Numbered from the stretch's first letter, positions 49,343 through 64,000 are shown. The stretch: DNA of 64,000 bases from Ferruginibacter sp. (GCA_965247025.1 OZ252000.1:1169458-1233457); one strand, 5' to 3'. The notes: generated by a model from the sequence alone, not told the origin. Made by a program: numbers and translations.

Positions 49343-49440
49343 AGCCAACTCATTAAATGCCGCAACCAGCGGCAAGTTAAAAATTGGTTATTGATAATAA
49401 ACATTTACAGCTGTACATTTTAAAATGCAGGTTGCTTTAT
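49343..49440 (-). repeat. family-D element, partial (hairpin-plus-core module and adjoining segment)
   Basis: The plus strand reads AGCCAAC-TC-ATTAAATGCCGC-AACCA-GCGGCAAGTTAAAAA.... On the minus strand it ends in the GTTGGCT core 44 nt upstream of the VOC start. Confidence 0.55.
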
Positions 49441-50026: not shown

Positions 50027-52006
50027 ATGTTATTTAAAATGAAAGTCGCAAAAAAGATTGCCCTCATATTCATTCTATTGTGTTGTTCGCTTTTTATTAA
50101 AGCGCAAAATAATTATGCAGATAGTTTGAAACAACAACTAACAGTAGCCAAAGAAGATGTAAACAAGGTTAATTTATTTTCAGAACTGGCAAGATTCTAC
50201 ATGTTTTTTTACCCTGATACATCAGCATATTATGGCAAAAAAGGGTTACAACTGGCGAGACAAGTAAACTACAAAGCAGGGCAGGCAAGTTGCATGTTGT
50301 CACTATGCATAAGCTATACCTTTTCAGGCGATTATATCAGCGCACTTAACTTTGGGCTTGAAGCATCGCCTATATTGGCAGATTTACATGACACTACCCT
50401 GGTTATCTGGAACAATATCCAAATTGCTACCTGCTACCGTCAACTTGAAGATTATGACCAGGCATTGGCCTATGGATTTAAAGCAGATAATTTTTCCAAA
50501 CTCTTTCATCCTGGTTACAACCAGCAAAGTGTAGTTTTTGGATTAATAGGTTCTATTTATGAAAAGAAGAATCAACTTGATTCTGCATTAAATTTTGAAA
50601 AAAAAGCATTTGCTACGGATAGTGGCTGGTGTCAGATATTTCAATTTCTTGGTCAAACCTATGCTAAAAAAGGCCGCCTGGATTCAGCATTAAATTACTA
50701 TGAAAGAGGTTTAGGCAATTCCGTAAAAGAAAACAATACGGTGGCATTTATAGATCTGTGTAATAACCTCTCCAAAATTTTTGAATCTACCGGACATACA
50801 GATTCTTCGTTATTCTATGCCAACAAAGCTATTCCGCAGTTTGGAACAAAAACCAATCCTGAAGGTTTACTGGAGCTTTCCACACGCCTTGCCAGGCTTT
50901 ATGAAATGCAGGGAAAACCGGATAGTACCATAAAATATCTAAAAGTTGAGAATACGTTAAAAGACATTTTGTACAGCCGGAAGAAAACCCGGGAGGCACA
51001 AAATTTTGCCTTTAATGAAAAGTTACATCAACAGGATCTTATCTCTCAGCATCAAAGAGATGAAAACAAAATAAGAATAGCTGTACTACTTGCTGTCGTG
51101 CTCATTTTTTTATCAATAGCCTTTTTTCTTTAGAGAAATAACCAGCAAAAACAAAAAGCAAAAACTAAAATTGAAAAAGCGTACGCTGAATTAAAATCGA
51201 CTCAGGCTCAGCTTATTCAAAGTGAAAAAATGGCCAGCCTTGGTGAACTCACTGCAGGCATTGCTCATGAAATACAGAACCCGTTGAACTTTGTGAATAA
51301 TTTTAGTGAAGTAAACAGTGAGTTAATTAAGGAATTAAAAAATGAGGCAGTAAATGGCAACATAGATGAAGTGACTGCCATTGCGAATGACATTGAATCC
51401 AACTCCGAAAAAATCAATCACCATGGTAAACGTGCAGATGCCATTGTAAAAGGCATGCTGCAGCATTCTCGTCAAACATCCGGCGTAAAAGAACTTACAG
51501 ATATCAATGCCTTGTGTGATGAATATTTGCGGCTCGCTTATCATGGCCTGCGTGCAAAAGACAAAAGTTTTAATGCTGATTTAAAAACGGAGTTTGATAA
51601 CACAATTGGTAAAATAAATATTGTGCCGCAAGACATGGGACGGGTATTATTAAATTTATTCAACAATGCTTTTTATGCAGTAAATGAAAAGAAGAAAACT
51701 GCTGAAAACAATTATCTTCCAACAGTTTTGGTACAAACAAAAAAGATAAATGATAAGGTTGAAATATTGGTTGAAGACAATGGCAATGGCATTCCTGATT
51801 CAATAAAAGAAAAAATCTTTCAGCCATTTTTTACCACCAAACCCACCGGACAGGGAACAGGATTGGGATTGAGTTTAAGTTATGATATTATTAAGGCACA
51901 TAAAGGAGAAATAACAATGGAAACAAAAGATAAAAAAGAGGAGATGGTTGATATGGGGAAAAGCAAAGGAACAAGATTTATAGTTCAACTTCCAACAACT
52001 GCCTGA
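50027..52006 (+). pseudogene. TPR-sensor histidine kinase interrupted by one in-frame TAG (51131-51133)
   Basis: ORFs 50027-51133 (signal, TPR repeats, TM segment ...LLAVVLIFLSIAFFL*) and 51230-52006 (H-box IAHEIQNPLNF, N-box LLNLFNNAFYA, G-boxes DNGNGI and GTGLGLS) are in the same frame. Read-through gives RNNQQKQKAKTKIEKAYAELKSTQAQLIQSEKMASLGELTAG, the normal linker of this kinase class. Confidence 0.75.
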
Positions 52007-56357: not shown

Positions 56358-56423
56358 AGTCAACAAAGGCTTAAATCGAAGTTCCGCTATCGCTCCTCTT
56401 CGTTTAAGCCATATATGTTGGGC
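56358..56423 (-). other. 66-bp attC-like recombination site of the PIN cassette
   Basis: The minus strand reads GCCCAAC-ATATAT-GGCTTAAACGAAG-AGGAGCGATAGCGGAA-CTTCGATTTAAGCC-TTT-GTTGACT. It has an RYYYAAC box, 13/14-nt imperfect inverted arms with one bulged base, and a GTTRRRY-like box. Confidence 0.65.
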
Positions 56424-57035: not shown

Positions 57036-57116
57036 TCTGCAAATTTACAAATAATTGGTCAAGTTGTATTTGTTTGTCAATTTTGGGTGGTCTGTCGGTT
57101 GCTTACGCCCAACGAG

Positions 57117-58861
57117 AGTTTGTGAAAAAACTCCTTTAGCCAAATATACACACAATGTGAATAGCGTAAACAGCGTATGATTTTTGTTATAAAAAAGGCA
57201 TGCAGTTTATACAAGGAAACAACAGACATCAAACCTACTTCACCACACCCGACGACCAGGTGAGTGCTGACAATGCAGCAAGGCTCATGGATGCTTTTAT
57301 TGATAAGCTTGATCTGCAAAAATTAGGCTTTACCGGCACGGTTCATAAAAGTGAAGGCCGGCCGCCGTATGCACCCGGAGTGCTGTTAAAATTGTACCTC
57401 TACGGCTATCTCAATAAAATCCGCAGCAGCCGGAAGCTCGAAAAGGAATGCAGCCGAAACATTGAACTGCAGTGGCTGTTGCAGGGACTGCAACCTAACT
57501 ACCACACCATTGCAGATTTTCGTAAAGTACATGCAGTGCCTTTACAATCCATGTTTAAACTGTATGTACAGTTTCTTAGCGATGCAGGCCTGCTGGGCAA
57601 AACAACCATCGGTATAGATGGCAGTAAGTTTAAAGCAGTTAACAGTAAAAAGAATAACTACAACCAAAAAAAGATAGATAAGCACCGCCAGTTTATTGAA
57701 GACAAAACTGCGAAATATTTACAGGAACTCGATGAACTGGATCAGCAGGAAAACGTGGCTGCCAGTGATGAACTCCTGCTAAAAAAAGAAAAGATAGCAC
57801 AGGGCCTCGCCAGGCTAAAAGAACGCACCATTAAATACGATACGCTTCAGCACCAACTGGATGCTACGGATGATAAGCAGGTTAGCACCACTGATGCTGA
57901 CAGCCGCAGCATACTTATAACCAAAAGTATTGTAGAAGTTGCCTATAATACACAGAATGCTGTGGACGATAAACACAACCTGATAGTACATACACAAGCC
58001 ACCAATACCAATGATGGCAAGGCTCTACACAAAGCAGCTATACAAGCCAAACAAAATCTGCAATTAAAAAAAGAAGACAGCCTGATGGTGCTGGCAGATA
58101 AAGGTTACCATACCGGTGCTGAGCTGCTCGAATGTCAGCAGGAAAACATGATCACCCATGTAGCGTATAAAGAACAGCCTGGTGTCAAACACATTGCCAA
58201 CGAATTTTTAGTTGAAAGCTTTAACTATAATAAACTGGCAGATACCTATACCTGCCCCGCCGGTGCAGTACTAACGTCACTGGGTACCTGGCACAATAAA
58301 AAAGGTGAAGCAAATGAAACCAGCTACCGCTTTAAAACATACCGTACCGGTGCCTGTAAAACATGCCCGTTAAAAAGCCAGTGTACCAAACTTCCCAAGC
58401 GCATTATCCAGCGTAGTGAATACCAGGATGCGGTAGACCTCAATGATAACAACATCAAAAAAAATCCCCAATATTACAAGCGAAGACAAGCCATTTGTGA
58501 ACATCCCTTTGGCAGTATAAAAAGGCATTGGGGTTACACACATACACTGCTGAAAGGATTGCAAAAAGTAAATGGTGAAATGAACCTCATCATGTTTTGT
58601 TACAACTTTATGCGAACCAAAAACATACTCGGCTTTGAAAAAATGCTGCAGACAATCAAAAACTGGCAACCAGATTACACCAAAGTAATCTGCCTTTTAA
58701 AAAGCGCCTCTATTAAGCCGATTTACAGACAACATAAGCCTCCATTTTTTTTGAATAATTACTGCGTGGTATTTTTAAGGACTGCCTGAATCAACTTCTA
58801 TTGGCTTGTGGTGAAAAGTTACGGGGCGGTTTTTTGACTTTTTTTAGTTTTCTCACAGTCT
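57117..58861 (+). mobile_element. IS1182-family insertion sequence
   Basis: It has a single transposase ORF. The imperfect terminal inverted repeats are AGTTTGTGAAAAAACT (57117-57132) and AGTTTTCTCACAGTCT (58846-58861), matching at 13 of 16 positions. Confidence 0.75.
57200..58789 (+). CDS. IS1182-family (IS5-like DDE) transposase
   Basis: 529 aa. The N-terminal InsH-type domain reads GRPPYAPGVLLKLYLYGYLNKIRSSRKLEKECSRNIELQWLL...YHTIADFRK. The protein also has a Cys-rich segment CPAG...CKTCPLKSQC and a C-terminal DDE region. Confidence 0.9.
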   Translation: MQFIQGNNRHQTYFTTPDDQVSADNAARLMDAFIDKLDLQKLGFTGTVHKSEGRPPYAPGVLLKLYLYGYLNKIRSSRKLEKECSRNIELQWLLQGLQPNYHTIADFRKVHAVPLQSMFKLYVQFLSDAGLLGKTTIGIDGSKFKAVNSKKNNYNQKKIDKHRQFIEDKTAKYLQELDELDQQENVAASDELLLKKEKIAQGLARLKERTIKYDTLQHQLDATDDKQVSTTDADSRSILITKSIVEVAYNTQNAVDDKHNLIVHTQATNTNDGKALHKAAIQAKQNLQLKKEDSLMVLADKGYHTGAELLECQQENMITHVAYKEQPGVKHIANEFLVESFNYNKLADTYTCPAGAVLTSLGTWHNKKGEANETSYRFKTYRTGACKTCPLKSQCTKLPKRIIQRSEYQDAVDLNDNNIKKNPQYYKRRQAICEHPFGSIKRHWGYTHTLLKGLQKVNGEMNLIMFCYNFMRTKNILGFEKMLQTIKNWQPDYTKVICLLKSASIKPIYRQHKPPFFLNNYCVVFLRTA

Positions 58862-59058
58862 GACGGACAGGGCTTTGTGCAGGTTGGGAAATAGAATTCC
58901 GTCTGCCCGGAACCGCTGCTGATTGAAAAACTGATGATGAAGATAACAACAAAAAGCCAAATAGCATTCCGTCAAGCCCGAACAAAAGCTGAATAGAATT
59001 ACAAATGCTCATTGTTATTCCGTCTGCCCAACTTGCACAAAACCCCTTGTTGTATGCC
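58862..59058 (-). other. long attC-like site of the RiPP cassette, separated from its 3' core by the IS
   Basis: The minus strand reads GGCATACAAC-AAGGGGTTTTGTGCAAGTTGGGCAGACGG ... CCCAACCTGCACAAAGCCCTGTCCGTC, then the IS. The arms are imperfect reverse complements. The expected GTT core (GTTGGGC, 57113-57107) sits on the other side of the IS. Confidence 0.55.
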
Positions 59059-59656
59059 GTTTTTTGTCTGTCGCATAAATTCCGATTGATATTTCTGCAT
59101 AGTTGTAAGTTTTCAAAGTCAATGCGTTAATTGTTGGAAAGTCTGCAACAGTAGTATAATTTTTATTAGTCAATACGTCTTGATAGCAATAAAATAATGC
59201 TAAAATATTAGCACTCTGTAAAACATTTTTTGTCAAATTTTGTAAGTCTCCGTCTGTAAAGTGATATGGGTCTAATAGCACAATATCAAATATCCGTTTA
59301 TTAAAATCAAAACTGTTTGCGTTTTTAATAAAAAAGTTGTCTTTAAAATTTGGATGAATTTCATCTATTGCTTGCTTTATCGAATTCTCTTGAAAGTCAA
59401 TACCAAAAGGGGTTACTTTAAAATTGCAATGGTTAATTAAATGGTTTAGTAGTAAGCCGTTTCCACAGCATATATCTAAAATTTTGCATTTACTTAAAGT
59501 GATATGGTCATTGAGTAGGTCAGAAAAATAATTATATTCTTTAAATGGATATTTGTCAAAACCATTTGGAATATTCAAGTCGTTATGGTTTGTATTCCAA
59601 TACTTTGATTTGTAAAAATCATATTGGCTTTTGTAGAATACTTCGCTTTTGTTCAT
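59015..59656 (-). CDS. class I SAM-dependent methyltransferase (RiPP cassette)
   Basis: 213 aa with motif I ILDICCGNG. It overlaps the radical SAM gene by 38 nt, and its last 14 codons run into the attC-like site. Confidence 0.75.
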   Translation of the reverse strand: MNKSEVFYKSQYDFYKSKYWNTNHNDLNIPNGFDKYPFKEYNYFSDLLNDHITLSKCKILDICCGNGLLLNHLINHCNFKVTPFGIDFQENSIKQAIDEIHPNFKDNFFIKNANSFDFNKRIFDIVLLDPYHFTDGDLQNLTKNVLQSANILALFYCYQDVLTNKNYTTVADFPTINALTLKTYNYAEISIGIYATDKKRHTTRGFVQVGQTE

Positions 59657-60782
59657 ATTGTTTCAAATTCTTTGCTACACAATTGTCAATATACGAAATA
59701 ATTTTTTTGAGGTCAGCACAATATACACTTGGGTTGTCAAATTTGTTTTCTGTAGAATATCTATTTGGTAAATATCCACCACCACAAATATTAACTATCG
59801 AACATTCTTTACAAGTCTGGCATAAAACATCAATTCCTAATTGTCGTGATACAACTTGTGTGTGTTGTGCTACTTCATTAAAAGTATTGTCAAAAACATT
59901 ATGATTTATTTTTGTTGCTCCATTAAATGAACTTTTTAACGTATCGAGGATTTCAATATCTCCGTTTGCTTCAATAAAAATAAAATCAATTGGGCTTGTT
60001 CCAATACTTTCAACGTTTGAGTTTCCACCAATAAGAAGTTTAACTATGTTTTCTAAAACTCTAATCTTTGTATCGGTTTCTTTATAAAACCAATTGTCAA
60101 ATATTGTGTTTATCCATTCTGCAATTTTTGTGGTTTGCAAGTCTTTATCTTTTCCATTTGGTCTTCTATCAAAGTTGTCGTCGGGAAAGAGCAAATCTAT
60201 CATTGGTGGGTTAAATGACATAAAGTAATCAAGAACTTCCACTGGATTAGAGTCGACATTTATAACTCCGAGTATGCCACGAAAAATAGATTTGTATTTC
60301 TCTGATGTTAAAAGCTCAAGTTTTTTTTCTAGTCGTTCTGAACTTCCTTTGCCATTATGGTCTACACGGTGTAAATCATTTATTTTCGGAGGTCCGTCTA
60401 TGCTAACTCCAATACTACCATTATATTTCAGAAAAAAGTCGCCAATTTCTTCAGTAAATAATAATCCATTTGTTTGAATTCCTAAATCTACTTTTATATT
60501 GTTGTCTATAAGTTCTGTTTGAATTACTTCTCCTAATCTATGCAATTTCTTTGCTCCAATTAATAATGGTTCTCCACCGTGAAAAGCTATAGAGATATGA
60601 TTTTTTGAGTGGAATTGGCAATGTTCTCTAATCTTTTGACAAGCAACTCGAAATGTTTTTTCCGAGATAAATTTTGGTTGGTCTTGCCAAGAGTTGTCTT
60701 CAAGATTATAAACGTAACAATAGGAACAATTTAGATTACATCTACTTGCTATTTTGAAAATGTATGAATGGAATGGTATCAT
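59619..60782 (-). CDS. radical SAM/SPASM peptide maturase, FxsB-like (cyclophane-forming family)
   Basis: - CX3CX2C cluster: KIASRCNLNCSYCYVY.
- FHGGEPLL, GIQTNG, SIDGPPKINDLHR and LLFPDDNFDRRP.
- C-terminal SPASM: CQTCKECSIVNICGGGYLPNRY...FDNPSVYCADL.
- The ATG at 60782 is preferred over the TTG at 60788. Confidence 0.8.
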   Translation of the reverse strand: MIPFHSYIFKIASRCNLNCSYCYVYNLEDNSWQDQPKFISEKTFRVACQKIREHCQFHSKNHISIAFHGGEPLLIGAKKLHRLGEVIQTELIDNNIKVDLGIQTNGLLFTEEIGDFFLKYNGSIGVSIDGPPKINDLHRVDHNGKGSSERLEKKLELLTSEKYKSIFRGILGVINVDSNPVEVLDYFMSFNPPMIDLLFPDDNFDRRPNGKDKDLQTTKIAEWINTIFDNWFYKETDTKIRVLENIVKLLIGGNSNVESIGTSPIDFIFIEANGDIEILDTLKSSFNGATKINHNVFDNTFNEVAQHTQVVSRQLGIDVLCQTCKECSIVNICGGGYLPNRYSTENKFDNPSVYCADLKKIISYIDNCVAKNLKQYEQKRSILQKPI

Positions 60783-60798
60783 CGTCAAGTATTTTTTG

Positions 60799-60841
60799 AA
60801 AAAAAAATAGCAGGCTCTTTCGTATCTAATTGAGCCTGCTA
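60799..60841 (-). terminator. hairpin plus T-run between the precursor ORF and the maturase (attenuator-like)
   Basis: The minus strand reads TAGCAGGCTC-AATTAGATACGAAA-GAGCCTGCTA followed by TTTTTTTTT, beginning 5 nt after the precursor stop. Confidence 0.55.
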
Positions 60842-60845
60842 TAAA

Positions 60846-61034
60846 CTAAGAACGAGAATGACCGCCACCACTATTGTGGTTTTGGTGTGACATACTTTGC
60901 TTTTCATTGTTGTTAACAGCCGTAGCTATTTTTTTCAACATTGCATTTTGCAAAGTATTAATTCTCTCTGTTGACATAGATTTTACATTTAATCCTGTCA
61001 ACATTGGCTGTGTCGAACTAATGTTCTGTACCAT
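60846..61034 (-). CDS. candidate RiPP precursor peptide with a His-rich C-terminal core
   Basis: MVQNISSTQPMLTGLNVKSMSTERINTLQNAMLKKIATAVNNNEKQSMSHQNHNSGGGHSRS*. It has a helical leader-like N-terminus and a core with three His-x-x triplets (HQN, HNS, HSR). It lies directly upstream of the maturase. The start could be M1, M11 or M20. Confidence 0.55.
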   Translation of the reverse strand: MVQNISSTQPMLTGLNVKSMSTERINTLQNAMLKKIATAVNNNEKQSMSHQNHNSGGGHSRS

Positions 61035-61150
61035 CTGGAATTAATTTAAGCATAATGTCTACTCTATTCACTTTTCGACTTCCGTGCCTTACTCTTTTTT
61101 CGATTTTCAGGTATCTCGATTTGTCTATGCGTTGAGGGGTTCGCTAAAAT

Positions 61151-61356
61151 GGCATACAACGTTTGAGTACTTACGAAGGCTGGGAATTGTTGCTGGTCTA
61201 GCCCCGGCCGACTGAAGCTAAATTAATGATAAATGTTGATTGTTACCACGTCCGATGACCAGATTTCCGTCCGCTGGAACCGCTGCTGAATAAAGTACAA
61301 AAGTTGCGACACGGCTTCCGTCCCGCCCAGCTTTTGGAAGTACTTTTGTTATGTGC
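61151..61356 (-). other. long attC-like site of the methyltransferase cassette (~206 bp)
   Basis: The minus strand reads GCACATAAC-AAAAGTACTTCCAAAAGCTGGGCGG ... CCCAGCCTTCGTAAGTACTCAAAC-GTTGTATGCC. It has imperfect inverted arms of ~25 nt. Confidence 0.6.
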
Positions 61357-61372
61357 TGCCCTTGTTTGGCTA

Positions 61373-61990
61373 TCATTTAAGGTGTCTTTTGAAGCTACAA
61401 AACAGGAAATTTTGTGTTGTGTCAAAAGGTGTTTTGTGGTCTTCTGTTATGCAACGTAATTTATCAAAACCGTTTTGAAGTTCTGTTGATAATTTTTCTT
61501 CACTATATTGTTTAATTTGTAATCCACTACATTTTTCTGGTCCATTGTCCGAAAAAGTTCCAATAGTCAAAAATCCTCTTACAGAATTTCTTGCTGTGTT
61601 CATATACTTTGCAATTTGTTCACTTGTTGTTAAAAAGTGAAAAGTTGCTCTATCGTGCCAAATGTCAAAAGTTGTTTCAGGCTGAAATTCTGTGATGTCG
61701 CTAACTACCCAATTTATTTTTTCAGCTTTGTTACCTAAACGTTGTTTTGCTTTTGCAAGTGCTTGTGCTGAAATGTCAAGTACTGTAATATTTTCAAAAC
61801 CTTCGTCAAGTAAATAGTCAACAAGTTTACTGTCACCACCGCCAATGTCTATGATTTTTGCGGACTTGGTCAAGCCGAAAGAATGTATAAATTCTAAAGA
61901 GGTTTTTGGTACTTCTTGTGTCCAACTTACTTGGTCTGGGTTTTTAGTTTTGTAAACTGTGTCCCAATGATTTTGTGTTGTCTTATCCAT
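61373..61990 (-). CDS. class I SAM-dependent methyltransferase
   Basis: 205 aa with motif I IIDIGGGDSKL and post-I VLDIS. Confidence 0.85.
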   Translation of the reverse strand: MDKTTQNHWDTVYKTKNPDQVSWTQEVPKTSLEFIHSFGLTKSAKIIDIGGGDSKLVDYLLDEGFENITVLDISAQALAKAKQRLGNKAEKINWVVSDITEFQPETTFDIWHDRATFHFLTTSEQIAKYMNTARNSVRGFLTIGTFSDNGPEKCSGLQIKQYSEEKLSTELQNGFDKLRCITEDHKTPFDTTQNFLFCSFKRHLK

Positions 61991-62239
61991 ACTACAAAGG
62001 TCTAAATGAAAAATTATTCAATGTGTGACAAATGTTACATTAGGGTTGCACATAACGAAAGGGCTTTGCGCAGGTGTAGCATTAGAATTCCTTCCGCCCG
62101 GAACTGCTGCTTGGCCTTTTGTTAAAGATAAATATTAAGAACTAAATGCTCAGCTTTTTTCGTCCGCCCGAACCACCGCCCGGCTATGTAAAACTGTTGA
62201 TTGCTGCAACGTCAAGCCACACTTGTGCAAAACCCCTTG

Positions 62240-62452
62240 TTATGCACTCGTGTTTAAAAAAGTGTCCGCTCGTTTGATGAAATATCTTTTTTGAAGACGT
62301 ATGAATTTAACGCCAAGCAAATAAACTTTTGAAATAAAAATTACCAAAAAAACTGTCCACCCATGAGCTGCAAAAGCAAACTTAAAAATGATGAAAAAAG
62401 ATTTACTGCTGAACAGTTCCGTCCGCCCGAGTATGAACCGCAAAGCGAACAT
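62240..62452 (-). CDS. 70-aa hydrophobic peptide, copy 1
   Basis: MFALRFILGRTELFSSKSFFIIFKFAFAAHGWTVFLVIFISKVYLLGVKFIRLQKRYFIKRADTFLNTSA, with two hydrophobic stretches. The ATG lies 3 nt after the core. Coding status is unproven. Confidence 0.4.
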   Translation of the reverse strand: MFALRFILGRTELFSSKSFFIIFKFAFAAHGWTVFLVIFISKVYLLGVKFIRLQKRYFIKRADTFLNTSA

Positions 62453-62645
62453 GGTGCATAACGAAAGGGCTTTGCGCAGGTGTAGCATTAGAATTCCTTC
62501 CGCCCGGAACTGCTGCTTGGCCTTTTGTTAAAGATAAATATTAAGAACTAAATGCTCAGCTTTTTTCGTCCGCCCGAACCACCGCCCGGCTATGTAAAAC
62601 TGTTGATTGCTGCAACGTCAAGCCACACTTGTGCAAAACCCCTTG

Positions 62646-62858
62646 TTATGCACTCGTGTTTAAAAAAGTGTCCGCTCGTTTGATGAAATATCTTTTTTGA
62701 AGACGTATGAATTTAACGCCAAGCAAATAAACTTTTGAAATAAAAATTACCAAAAAAACTGTCCACCCATGAGCTGCAAAAGCAAACTTAAAAATGATGA
62801 AAAAAGATTTACTGCTGAACAGTTCCGTCCGCCCGAGTATGAACCGCAAAGCGAACAT
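62646..62858 (-). CDS. 70-aa hydrophobic peptide, copy 2
   Basis: The translation is identical to copy 1. Confidence 0.4.
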   Translation of the reverse strand: MFALRFILGRTELFSSKSFFIIFKFAFAAHGWTVFLVIFISKVYLLGVKFIRLQKRYFIKRADTFLNTSA

Positions 62859-63053
62859 GGTGCATAACGAACAGGGCTTTGCGCAGGTGTGGCATTAGAA
62901 TTCCCGTCAGCCCGGAACTGCCGCTTGGCCATGTGTTAAAGATAAATATTAAGAACTAAATGCTCAGCTTTTTTCGTCCGCCCGAACCACCGCCCGGCTA
63001 TGTAAAACTGTTGATTGCTGCAACGTCAAGCCACACTTGTGCAAAACCCCTTG

Positions 63054-63266
63054 TTATGCACTCGTGTTTAAAAAAGTGTCCGCTCGTTTAATGAAATATC
63101 TTTTTTGAAGACGTATGAATTTAACGCCAAGCAAATAAACTTTTGAAATAAAAATCACCAAAAAAACTGTCCACCCATGAGCTGCAAAAGCAAACTTAAA
63201 AATGATGAAAAAAGATTTACTGCTGAACAGTTCCGTCCGCCCGAGTATGAACCGCAAAGCGAACAT
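63054..63266 (-). CDS. 70-aa hydrophobic peptide, copy 3
   Basis: The translation is identical to copy 1. The longer track ORF (to 63386) extends into repeat D. Confidence 0.4.
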   Translation of the reverse strand: MFALRFILGRTELFSSKSFFIIFKFAFAAHGWTVFLVIFISKVYLLGVKFIRLQKRYFIKRADTFLNTSA

Positions 63267-63269
63267 GGT

Positions 63270-63432
63270 GCATAACTCGTTAATTGCCGCAATTAGCGGC
63301 AGGTTAAAAATAAAGATTTGATTGATAATCAATAAGTTACAGGGGGTACTTTTTAGATTGTCGGTTGCGGCAATCTGCTCATACATAAATGTATTACTTT
63401 TTATGTAAACTCCCTCTACCTCACAAACAAGC
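63270..63432 (-). repeat. family-D ~165-bp element, full copy
   Basis: The minus strand reads GCTTGTTTGTGAGG...TACATAAAAAGTAATACATTTATGTA...GATTGCCGCAACC...TTTTTAAC-CTGCCGC-TAATT-GCGGCAATTAACGA-GTTATGC, ending exactly at the core that starts the third tandem cassette. Confidence 0.7.
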
Positions 63433-63745
63433 CTTCCTCCATTTTTCTCAACAGCCCCAATGTACTAATCGTTTCCAGCAAATGCCCAATCTGTTGCTCA
63501 TAAGCCGAATTAGCAGGTTTGGGTTTATCAAACTTAACAGGCCGCTCAAAAGTGTAAGCGGCTTCATGCACTTTGTCAGATGCCGGTCTGGGTTTTTCAA
63601 CCCCCGGCAATTCACACAATTTTGTAAAGAACAGCTGGTAGTTGGCCCATTCAGCTGCACCGGAGGCTTTCCAGCGGGTGATAAAATGTTTGGTATTTGC
63701 AACAATATTCTGGTCAGGCATCAATGTTAATGGGTTATCTGGCAA
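63416..63745 (-). pseudogene. N-terminal fragment of an MmeI/BREX-PglX-type DNA methyltransferase
   Basis: FITRWKASGAAEWANYQLFFTKLCELPGVEKP...AYTFERPV is the usual N-terminus of these large enzymes. The similarity stops after ~75 aa and the frame runs into repeat D. Confidence 0.45.
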
Positions 63746-63971
63746 TATACTGCATTGACAAATACTCTGTTAATGCATGCATCAAATATATTGGAACCGG
63801 GCTTTTCTTTTTAGGGTTAAAACACCCATTTTTTAAGGGTGTTTTTAACGGCATACCGTCTTAAATAGATGTTCACCCGGTTGTAATGAAGGGCTAATTA
63901 CCTGTTTACACAATTTACTTTACACTTTCCTCCTCTCCGATCGTACCAGGCTTCATTACTGATCATACTTA

Positions 63972-63996
63972 GCCTCTATACCGATCGTATAGAGGC
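63972..63996. other. perfect 10-bp-stem hairpin at the window edge
   Basis: GCCTCTATAC-CGATC-GTATAGAGGC. A related CCGATCGTA motif lies 40 nt upstream. Confidence 0.4.
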
Positions 63997-64000
63997 CGCA

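Follow-up and report, generated by a model that had tools for sequence, protein, structure and literature searches.

Can a complete pathway for a RiPP, a peptide that is made by the ribosome and modified after translation, travel as the cargo of a single integron gene cassette? This question is raised by a 64,000-nucleotide (nt) stretch of the genome of Ferruginibacter sp. (GCA_965247025.1 OZ252000.1:1169458-1233457), here called the window. A preliminary description of this DNA had singled out a 62-amino-acid (aa) open reading frame (ORF), a hairpin with a run of nine T residues, a radical S-adenosylmethionine (SAM) enzyme, a methyltransferase and a 10-nt inverted pair, and all these elements are indeed present, with all genes of the module on the minus strand. 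The cassette, as we delimit it (58865-61159, minus strand, ~2295 bp, with G|TT boundaries), comprises a leader, the precursor gene, the radical SAM gene, the methyltransferase gene and its own attC site up to the L' arm, and has a G+C content of 30-32%, compared to ~40% in the surrounding DNA. The conclusions presented here are computational, drawn from comparisons of sequences, hidden Markov models (HMMs), predicted folds and related loci. The gene content and the gene families, the precursor and the conservation of its core, the cassette boundaries and the occurrence of the unit in four array contexts are established; the module as a whole is probably a self-contained pathway for a triceptide-type RiPP, that is, a peptide with three-residue cyclophanes, borne on one integron cassette.

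The radical SAM/SPASM enzyme (59619-60782, minus strand) belongs to the FxsB family of peptide maturases. Its ORF was listed from a TTG at 60788; all homologues begin at the equivalent of the ATG at 60782 (MIPFHS), which is likely to be the true start and yields a protein of 387 aa. The motifs read in this protein are C15x3C19x2C22, FHGGEPLL, IQTNG, SIDGPPKINDLHR, LLFPDDNFDRRP, CGGGYLPNRY and NPSVYCADL, and 13 family members share, without variation, both the CX3CX2C motif and the cysteines of the C-terminal SPASM segment (C321, C324, C327, C333 and C355). The score with the FxsB model TIGR04269 is 389.8 bits, above the curated cut-off of 370, with residues 7-368 aligned to positions 2-362 of the 363-position model, and the score with the XyeB model is 174.7 bits. 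The closest solved structure is that of the triceptide synthase ChlB (PDB 9gm3, E 3.9e-72, residues 7-371 aligned). These results uphold the assignment to the FxsB/three-residue-cyclophane family that had been made from recognized motifs. A SPASM enzyme from outside RiPP biosynthesis, for instance an anaerobic sulfatase maturase, next to a spurious small ORF would be in keeping with the full-length but weak match to the anSME model TIGR03942 (138.9 bits), the next in line among models other than those of cyclophane makers, and to the sulfatase maturase structure PDB 4k37 (E 2e-24). However, the anSME score misses its cut-off of 349 whereas the FxsB score passes, the ChlB match is strong, no sulfatase gene lies nearby, and the core of the small ORF shows synonymous change only. 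Refuted by the HMM scores, the ChlB match and the core conservation, this explanation retains practically no probability in our judgment, and the enzyme is best treated as a RiPP maturase.

Close homologues of the maturase, with 70-97% identity, are found in six other loci (L001, L002 from Algoriphagus sp. H41, L003, L005, L006 and L007); a scan of genome contigs with the maturase returned only an unrelated Anaerococcus locus, and a pattern search with the back-translated core gave 0 hits in a collection of metagenome DNA that does not contain these contigs. The C-terminus of the window maturase is 8-11 residues longer than in these close homologues of 376-379 aa, and the overlap with the methyltransferase gene, usually 4-14 nt, therefore becomes 38 nt.

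Upstream of the maturase, the 62-aa ORF (60846-61034, minus strand) ends in ...SMSHQNHNSGGGHSRS and carries three H-x-x triplets, H50QN, H53NS and H59SR. They form a 13-residue core, HQNHNSGGGHSRS, laid out as H50QN-H53NS-GGG-H59SR-S62. A 59-62-aa ORF with the identical core precedes the maturase in L001, L002, L005, L006 and L007, and the core is likewise unchanged in the homologue P0122; the contig of L003 holds only the 3' end of the small ORF. Compared with Algoriphagus sp. H41, the window shows other codons at 8 of the 13 core positions, with all 8 changes synonymous (0 non-synonymous). Because the identical core is kept wherever the upstream DNA is present and its codons change only synonymously, the small ORF is, by all indications of its evolution, a real precursor gene. 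The precursor assignment, initially offered with reserve, is thereby borne out: neither computational result that would have spoken against a RiPP-type unit of precursor, FxsB maturase and methyltransferase, namely a maturase clustering with sulfatase maturases or the lack of a conserved small ORF, was obtained. The start codon, described as ambiguous between M1, M11 and M20, resolves to M1 because the close homologues have Thr in place of M11 and residues 9-19 show conservation at the level of the protein. The leader peptide contains a recognition-like motif, LTGLNVKSMSTERINTLQNAMLKKIATAV, the general form of which, L-(D/N)-(I/V)-x-x-M-(S/T)-x-E...N-x-x-L-(K/R)-x-x-(A/L), can be aligned with the small ORFs that lie upstream in FxsB-family loci at a greater distance. 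As in FxsB-family systems generally, the enzyme is thus adjacent to a small precursor with aromatic-x-x motifs near its C-terminus.

What such an enzyme may do to this core can be gauged from its relatives, the cores of which we surveyed in 80 metagenomic loci. Relatives with 40-53% identity have HxxHxxHxx cores, for example HQNHGSHSNHST, HQSHRSHGS and HTSHGMHTSHSS, and those with 31-34% identity have YhhA-type cores, ...ITSYDRMHHRH(S/N)RS, so that His-rich cores appear to be the norm in this part of the FxsB family. YhhB is reported to link His-C2 to the C-beta of Arg in HNR and also Tyr to Arg (PMC11499958, PMC11002830). Furthermore, HaaB (HAA) and HtkB (HTK) form His-C2-to-C-beta three-residue cyclophanes, with precursor families that have 2-3 Hxx motifs (P156 in the case of HtkB; PMC11499958, PMC11002830), and MicB makes a His-Ala-Ser (HAS) cyclophane, the His of which is then ADP-ribosylated (PMC12912966). 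Given these published His-x-x cyclophanes and the His-rich cores of the 40-53% identical relatives, a core of His-x-(N/S/R) triplets is not the novelty it was originally taken for. For the window peptide, straightforward extrapolation predicts the cyclophanes His50-Asn52, His53-Ser55 and His59-Arg61.

A RiPP module with another chemistry has to be weighed against this prediction: only HSR might be cross-linked, or C-N or C-O links or longer rings might form, with the other His residues free, for example to bind a metal. Only the ...HSRS end of the peptide resembles a characterized one, the YhhA end ...H(S/N)RS; cyclophane synthases of the superfamily also form C-N and C-O links and rings of 3-5 residues, as stated in the introduction of PMC11499958; and the maturase, with 385 bits on the YhhB equivalog model NF041707, stays under the cut-off of 445. 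However, all three triplets and the GGG spacer have remained invariant under synonymous drift, tandem H-x-N and H-x-S triplets recur in the cores of relatives, and precedents exist for both acceptors, His-x-Ser cyclophanes of MicB (PMC12912966) and an Asn C-beta acceptor for XncB and OscB, where the aromatic residue is Trp or Phe (PMC11002830). We consider such other chemistry unlikely, albeit with an appreciable residual chance, and take three His cyclophanes as the expected product.

The third gene encodes a class I SAM-dependent methyltransferase of 213 aa (59015-59656, minus strand; Pfam Methyltransf_25/31), which overlaps the radical SAM ORF by 38 nt (59619-59656), exactly as first noticed, and the last codons and the stop of which fall inside the attC site. 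This gene follows that of the maturase in L001-L003, L005-L007 and L008, and in all close loci the two genes overlap, the shared stretch ranging from 4 to 38 nt. In L008, on a high-G+C contig, the order is an FxsB-family maturase and a YhhC-like oxygenase followed by a full-length methyltransferase homologue (28% identity, pairwise E 2e-32), and the core is GHLNYFKTTK. The methyltransferase family is small, with 111 cluster representatives at E<=1e-10 among 1.84e9, and in four proteins (P0094, P0112, P0200 and P0270) its domain is fused to YhhB/FxsB-like or other peptide radical SAM maturases. Moreover, in L088 (4135-6582) and L091 (125-2406), 49-51% identical methyltransferases stand beside a different, anSME/DynA-like radical SAM/SPASM enzyme that scores below all NCBIfam cut-offs. 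The adjacency in the close loci, the co-occurrence in L008, the fusions and the second maturase type jointly point to the methyltransferase being a specific partner of the maturase rather than a passenger.

The case for a methyltransferase that does not tailor the peptide, being a passenger or a self-protection gene that acts, for instance, on a small molecule or on the cellular target of the peptide, starts from the generic appearance of the family. The NCBIfam matches are to generic UbiE, ArsM and BioC models, all far below their cut-offs; Foldseek comparison of an AlphaFold2 model (predicted local distance difference test score 77) with the PDB retrieved only generic class I folds, with NodS on top and template modelling scores of 0.5-0.58; and 79 of the 80 more distant FxsB loci lack the gene. 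However, the overlap with the maturase gene in every close locus, the association with FxsB-clade maturases across phyla (L008), the fusions to peptide radical SAM maturases and the second maturase type, accompanied by cores that share HQN and the xRS-COOH end, all argue against it. A non-tailoring role accordingly seems improbable to us, and peptide methylation is the function that we propose.

With regard to the methyl acceptor, the cores found with this methyltransferase family all have an H-x-N triplet and, further on, an aromatic-x-(K/R) triplet; because nothing else is shared, our best guess is the H-x-N cyclophane, with an imidazole N as the methylated atom. The xRS C-terminal carboxylate is common to only the two Bacteroidota cores, the L008 core ending in ...YFKTTK. 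A profile search of the PDB gave weak matches, the RiPP methyltransferases BpumL/BamL and LahSB among them. An invariant LDPYHF was considered as an amino-methyltransferase motif of the (N/D)PPY type and rejected, as it aligns with the ordinary post-beta4 '...vhf' segment seen in methyltransferases for small molecules, for example PH0226. No methylated triceptide is described in the open literature that we searched. The small ORFs of L088 and L091 end in ...ANHQNYFRS, with two repeats in L091, and these loci look like a second, apparently uncharacterized RiPP class. In L091, an attC-like site (~2650-2790) and an MNT/HepT cassette come next; the L088 pair sits in a region that bears insertion sequences (IS) and integrases, not in an array.

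Some relatives contain one more gene. Distant YhhC-like 2-oxoglutarate (2OG)-Fe(II) oxygenases (46.6-49.7 bits versus a cut-off of 150) are encoded in L002 (9079-9654; Algoriphagus sp. H41), upstream of the precursor, and in L008 (4963-5709). The window cassette lacks a YhhC oxygenase. Because the YhhC-like oxygenase accompanies precursor, maturase and methyltransferase in both L002 and L008, comparison of these loci suggests that the window cassette is a trimmed form of a four-gene pathway.

Is the module really a cassette? The 10-nt inverted pair is present as described (GTTGTATGCC at 59049-59058 and GGCATACAAC at 61151-61160), but the left copy is not the end of the unit as had been assumed: it is the R'' box of an attC site of ~195 nt that extends to 58865, so that the cassette spans 58865-61159. 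Read along the minus strand, the cassette opens at G|TTGTATGCC (61159) and closes with ...CAAAGCCCTGTCC (58865). Its own attC (58865-59058) consists of the R'' region GGCATACAAC with the box ATACAAC, an L'' arm, a variable centre of ~150 nt and an L' arm; the arms AAGGGGTTTTGTGCAAGTTGGG and CCCAACCTGCACAAAGCCC pair, with a terminal stem of ~19 bp in single-stranded DNA folds of both strands. The attC of the preceding cassette (61160-61357, minus strand) shows arm pairing of ~20 bp in its fold, and its R' box supplies the G of G|TTGTATGCC. Furthermore, in three consecutive cassettes the start complements the R'' of the same cassette: TTATGTGC/GCACATAA in the cassette of a 205-aa methyltransferase, TTGTATGCC/GGCATACAA in the RiPP cassette and TTGGGC/GCCCAA in the cassette of a 155-aa ORF that comes next, the R'' of which is GCCCAAC at 56417-56423.

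The most decisive evidence comes from the comparison across loci. Units of ~2.3 kb with equal size and boundaries are found in L005, L006 and L007, where the module is bounded by the same 10-nt pair, and the same start is found in L001. The window, L001, L005/L007 and L006 represent four array contexts in which the upstream attCs differ and the flanks on both sides are unrelated; when the window is aligned with L001, the match sets in precisely at the G|TT junction, with high identity downstream of it and differing sequence upstream. The called genes that neighbour the module in these arrays point in its direction, and for most of them no Pfam match is found. The window attC is homologous to the attC that follows this module in L005 and in L006, although both arms contain changes. 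Downstream of the module in L003 is a different sequence, attC-like in appearance, and in L002 the four-gene unit of Algoriphagus is flanked by GTTAGCCTC...GAGGCTAAC. Because the same unit recurs among unrelated neighbours and is cut at G|TT, we judge it, from these comparisons, to be a genuine integron gene cassette; delivery by an integron-type cassette, as proposed in the preliminary description, is strongly supported by the four independent contexts with identical G|TT boundaries.

The alternative is that the flanking palindromes are repeats of the repetitive extragenic palindromic (REP) or miniature inverted-repeat transposable element (MITE) kind and the module is an ordinary chromosomal operon. 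Several observations would fit such repeats. Neither an integrase nor attI was found in the 64-kb window, where none of the 37 ORFs scanned, about half of the 72 ORFs of at least 90 aa, gave a tyrosine-recombinase Pfam match; two home-made attC scanners, one based on arm alignment and the other on duplex energy, did not separate the array region from background or shuffles; and the whole-site single-strand fold z-scores were weak. The cassette boundaries were called by cross-locus comparison after the scanners had been dropped. However, RYYYAAC-like and GTTRRRY-like boxes with paired arms around a variable centre, three consecutive units that start with the complement of their own R'', the identical unit in four unrelated arrays, each time with a different upstream attC and a cut at G|TT, and co-oriented neighbours mostly without Pfam matches are features of cassettes, and we hold ordinary repeats to be very improbable as an explanation. 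There is no integrase-like frame in 63300-64000 either. A cassette array without an integrase is called a CALIN, i.e. a cluster of attC sites lacking an integrase, and the array of the window is either of this kind or has its integrase beyond coordinate 64000.

The window copy of this cassette has been disrupted at its end. An IS1182-family element (57114-58864, plus strand), located inside the attC and outside the module proper, encodes a transposase at 57200-58789 (346.5 bits on NF033551, cut-off 270) and ends in the imperfect inverted repeats GAGAGTTTGTGAAAAAACT and AGTTTTCTCACAGTCTGAC. It has parted the L' arm from the R' box GTTGGGC, which is displaced to the far side (57113-57107, minus strand) and also forms the first bases of the next cassette. 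In L005 and L006, by comparison, the attC reads ...CCCTGTTC straight into R' G|TTGGC. Because the element separates the attC from its R' box, the insertion probably immobilises the window copy of the cassette.

How the genes of the cassette might be expressed is indicated by two non-coding segments. The hairpin that follows the precursor stop (60798-60842, minus strand) has an 11-bp stem and a 14-nt loop followed by U9; it folds at -18 kcal/mol (z = -3.8), a stability that 0 of 200 shuffled sequences attain. A simple terminator scan overlooked it because of a loop limit of 8 nt. The hairpin is kept in L001, L003, L005 and L006, and L002 has a hairpin and T-run of different sequence at the same position. 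A stable G+C-rich stem directly followed by a U-run is what is expected of an intrinsic terminator, and the element is a candidate partial terminator; the attenuator originally proposed is thus a real hairpin with a putative attenuating function.

The second segment is a 125-nt leader (61035-61159, minus strand), which is 100% identical to the window in L005 and 87.5% identical in L001, values that equal or exceed those of the coding parts. Between the window and L005, identity declines along the cassette, from 100% in the leader to 98.4% in the precursor, 96.8% in the maturase, 89.6% in the methyltransferase and 80.8% in attC, so that the non-coding leader appears, on the evidence of these alignments, to be at least as constrained as the genes. 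It contains two tandem matches to the cis-regulatory Rfam DUF805b RNA (RF02914; 30.5 bits at 61120->61086 and 18.3 bits at 61085->61056), both under the gathering score of 35.6, and a match of this type, also sub-threshold at 28.1-30.5 bits, recurs in L001 (2213-2247), L005 (3071-3105) and L006 (2210-2244). No DUF805b-like match occurs elsewhere in the 47-64 kb region of the window, and an Rfam scan of the window at gathering thresholds gave no match at all. The relation to DUF805b is accordingly presented as a sub-threshold resemblance only. No stable fold is predicted for the leader (z = +1.1). A 31-80-aa ORF that spans it (YAILANPSTHRQ...) is not a gene, as an indel shifts its frame in L001. 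We regard the leader as a candidate expression signal, whether a promoter, an element of the untranslated region or a protein-binding site.

These results translate into a simple model of the pathway. Transcription of the cassette would start at a promoter of the array upstream or in the conserved leader of the cassette itself, and the hairpin with U9 would stop most transcripts, such that precursor mRNA exceeds enzyme mRNA. The FxsB-family enzyme would bind the 62-aa precursor via the leader motif (residues ~12-40), and the [4Fe-4S] cluster on C15/C19/C22 would cleave SAM to yield a 5'-deoxyadenosyl radical, which would take a hydrogen from the C-beta of the residue in third place in each motif (Asn52, Ser55 and Arg61). 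The resulting carbon radical would join the imidazole C2 two residues upstream (His50, His53 and His59) and, with the SPASM auxiliary cluster assisting re-aromatisation, up to three cyclophanes would form, each at a cost of 2 Da (-2 Da). The translationally coupled methyltransferase would then place at least one methyl group (+14 Da) on the modified peptide. Because the cassette encodes neither function, leader removal and export are proposed to be performed by the host. Finally, an integron integrase could excise or insert the module at G|TT.

Several observations weigh against this model and temper our confidence in it. The cassette encodes no protease, transporter or immunity gene, and no recognizable promoter was found in the leader. 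The window precursor matches none of the curated precursor models: it has no match to the FxSxx-COOH precursor model TIGR04268, and neither it nor the Algoriphagus precursor matches the YhhA model NF041705 at E<=10, on which a YhhA-type control precursor (L076) scores 57.1 bits versus a cut-off of 36; the precursor family is uncatalogued. The choice of cross-linked motifs is extrapolated from relatives with 31-34% identity (YhhA-type loci, taken as YhhB) or from more remote ones. To these must be added the YhhB score under its cut-off, the weak or generic structural matches of the methyltransferase and the integrase that was not found in the window.

Among the known systems, YhhABC (Sugiyama et al. 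2022, JACS, doi 10.1021/jacs.2c00521, as described in PMC11002830 and PMC11499958) is similar in the FxsB/YhhB clade of its enzyme, to the model of which the window maturase aligns over its full length, in the ...H-S-R-S end of the peptide, which mirrors the YhhA end ...H-(S/N)-R-S, and in the distant YhhC-like oxygenase of the Algoriphagus and L008 relatives. In contrast, the window module has no YhhC, its precursor lies outside the YhhA model and lacks a Tyr motif, all its motifs being built on His (HQN, HNS and HSR), and a dedicated methyltransferase and carriage on an integron cassette are added. With the FxsB/FxSxx-COOH systems, the module shares CX3CX2C, the SPASM cysteines, the precursor-then-enzyme order and, through relatives, the leader motif; its core contains His in place of the Phe of the FxS repeats. 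The ChlB substrate motifs are YDR (PMC11499958), in contrast to the His triplets of the window core. The HaaB, HtkB and MicB systems have the same predicted type of product, with His-C2 joined to the C-beta of residue i+2 in cores that each contain several His motifs, and provide a precedent for tailoring of the cyclophane His in the His N-ADP-ribosylation by MicD (PMC11499958, PMC12912966), but they have different maturase clusters and hosts (Betaproteobacteria and Actinobacteria), and neither methyltransferase tailoring nor an integron cassette is reported for them in the literature that we searched. As an integron cassette, the unit is typical in its R''/L''-L'/R' attC, the G|TT crossover, the start that complements its own R'', the co-orientation and the recurrence across arrays. 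It is atypical in having three genes in 2.3 kb, where one ORF, or sometimes two or none, is usual (PMC8618304), and in its long, IS1182-interrupted attC in a window in which no integrase was found.

The surrounding array contains further elements of interest. The ORF of the preceding cassette (61373-61990, minus strand), outside the RiPP module, encodes the 205-aa class I methyltransferase, which is unrelated to that of the module; at 90% identity it falls into a cluster of 61 members, and JGI metagenomes are the source of many of those listed. At 62051-63270, three tandem cassettes of ~406 bp (100%, 100% and 88% identical), each with an attC of ~196 nt and an 82-aa ORF, look like a duplication within the array. 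Families of palindromic repeats of the type AACTCGTTAATTGCCGC...GCGGCAGGTTAAAAA, namely the 60-nt D3 (at 49347, 53093, 54392, 55305 and 63274), D4 and D7, punctuate the region of 49-64 kb between mostly minus-strand small ORFs and probably represent additional kinds of attC belonging to this array. Within the region, the opposite strand encodes a TPR/histidine-kinase pair (50027-52006). At the right edge, just past the last attC-like site, a 109-aa ORF (63416-63745, minus strand) presumably resembles the N-terminus of type IIG/BREX-like DNA methyltransferases. Outside the window, a segment of the Emticicia oligotrophica plasmid pEMTOL01 (L092 15001-15092; NC_018742.1 83642-83733) is 79% identical to the 3' arm of the attC. 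This is a conjugative plasmid of a Cytophagales bacterium, and the segment ends a run of co-oriented hypothetical genes, which, by this resemblance, may represent a plasmid-borne array of related cassettes.

The predicted core chemistry is already established and, in this respect, the finding extends known systems and holds no surprise for a RiPP specialist; it is through its packaging and its methyltransferase that the module merits an experiment. New are a small dedicated methyltransferase family that recurs beside, or fused to, peptide radical SAM maturases, and the packaging of a whole RiPP pathway as one cassette. We found no report of integron cassettes that carry genes for RiPPs, radical SAM enzymes or bacteriocins, in a literature coverage that was incomplete and excluded a key triceptide survey. 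We entertain, as a possibility that we rate as somewhat doubtful, the broader proposal that integron cassettes of Cytophagales-like Bacteroidota circulate complete RiPP pathways, with at least two unrelated maturase classes (FxsB/YhhB-like, and anSME/DynA-like in L091), one methyltransferase family and cores that share H-x-N and aromatic-x-(K/R). Under this proposal, the methyltransferase would perform a tailoring step new for cyclophane peptides, such as N-methylation of the cross-linked imidazole, and the DUF805b-like leader would be the cassette's own expression signal.

For RiPP research, the module offers a compact, expression-ready triceptide pathway of three genes in 2.3 kb with a His-only core, and an uncharacterized methyltransferase family that tracks peptide radical SAM maturases is a lead to a new tailoring reaction. 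The cassette boundaries can also serve to mark the limits of minimal biosynthetic gene clusters. The functions of most integron cassettes are unknown, and cassettes are usually described as carrying single ORFs. With a pathway that moves as a single cassette among four or more arrays, secondary metabolism would join the cargo known for cassettes.

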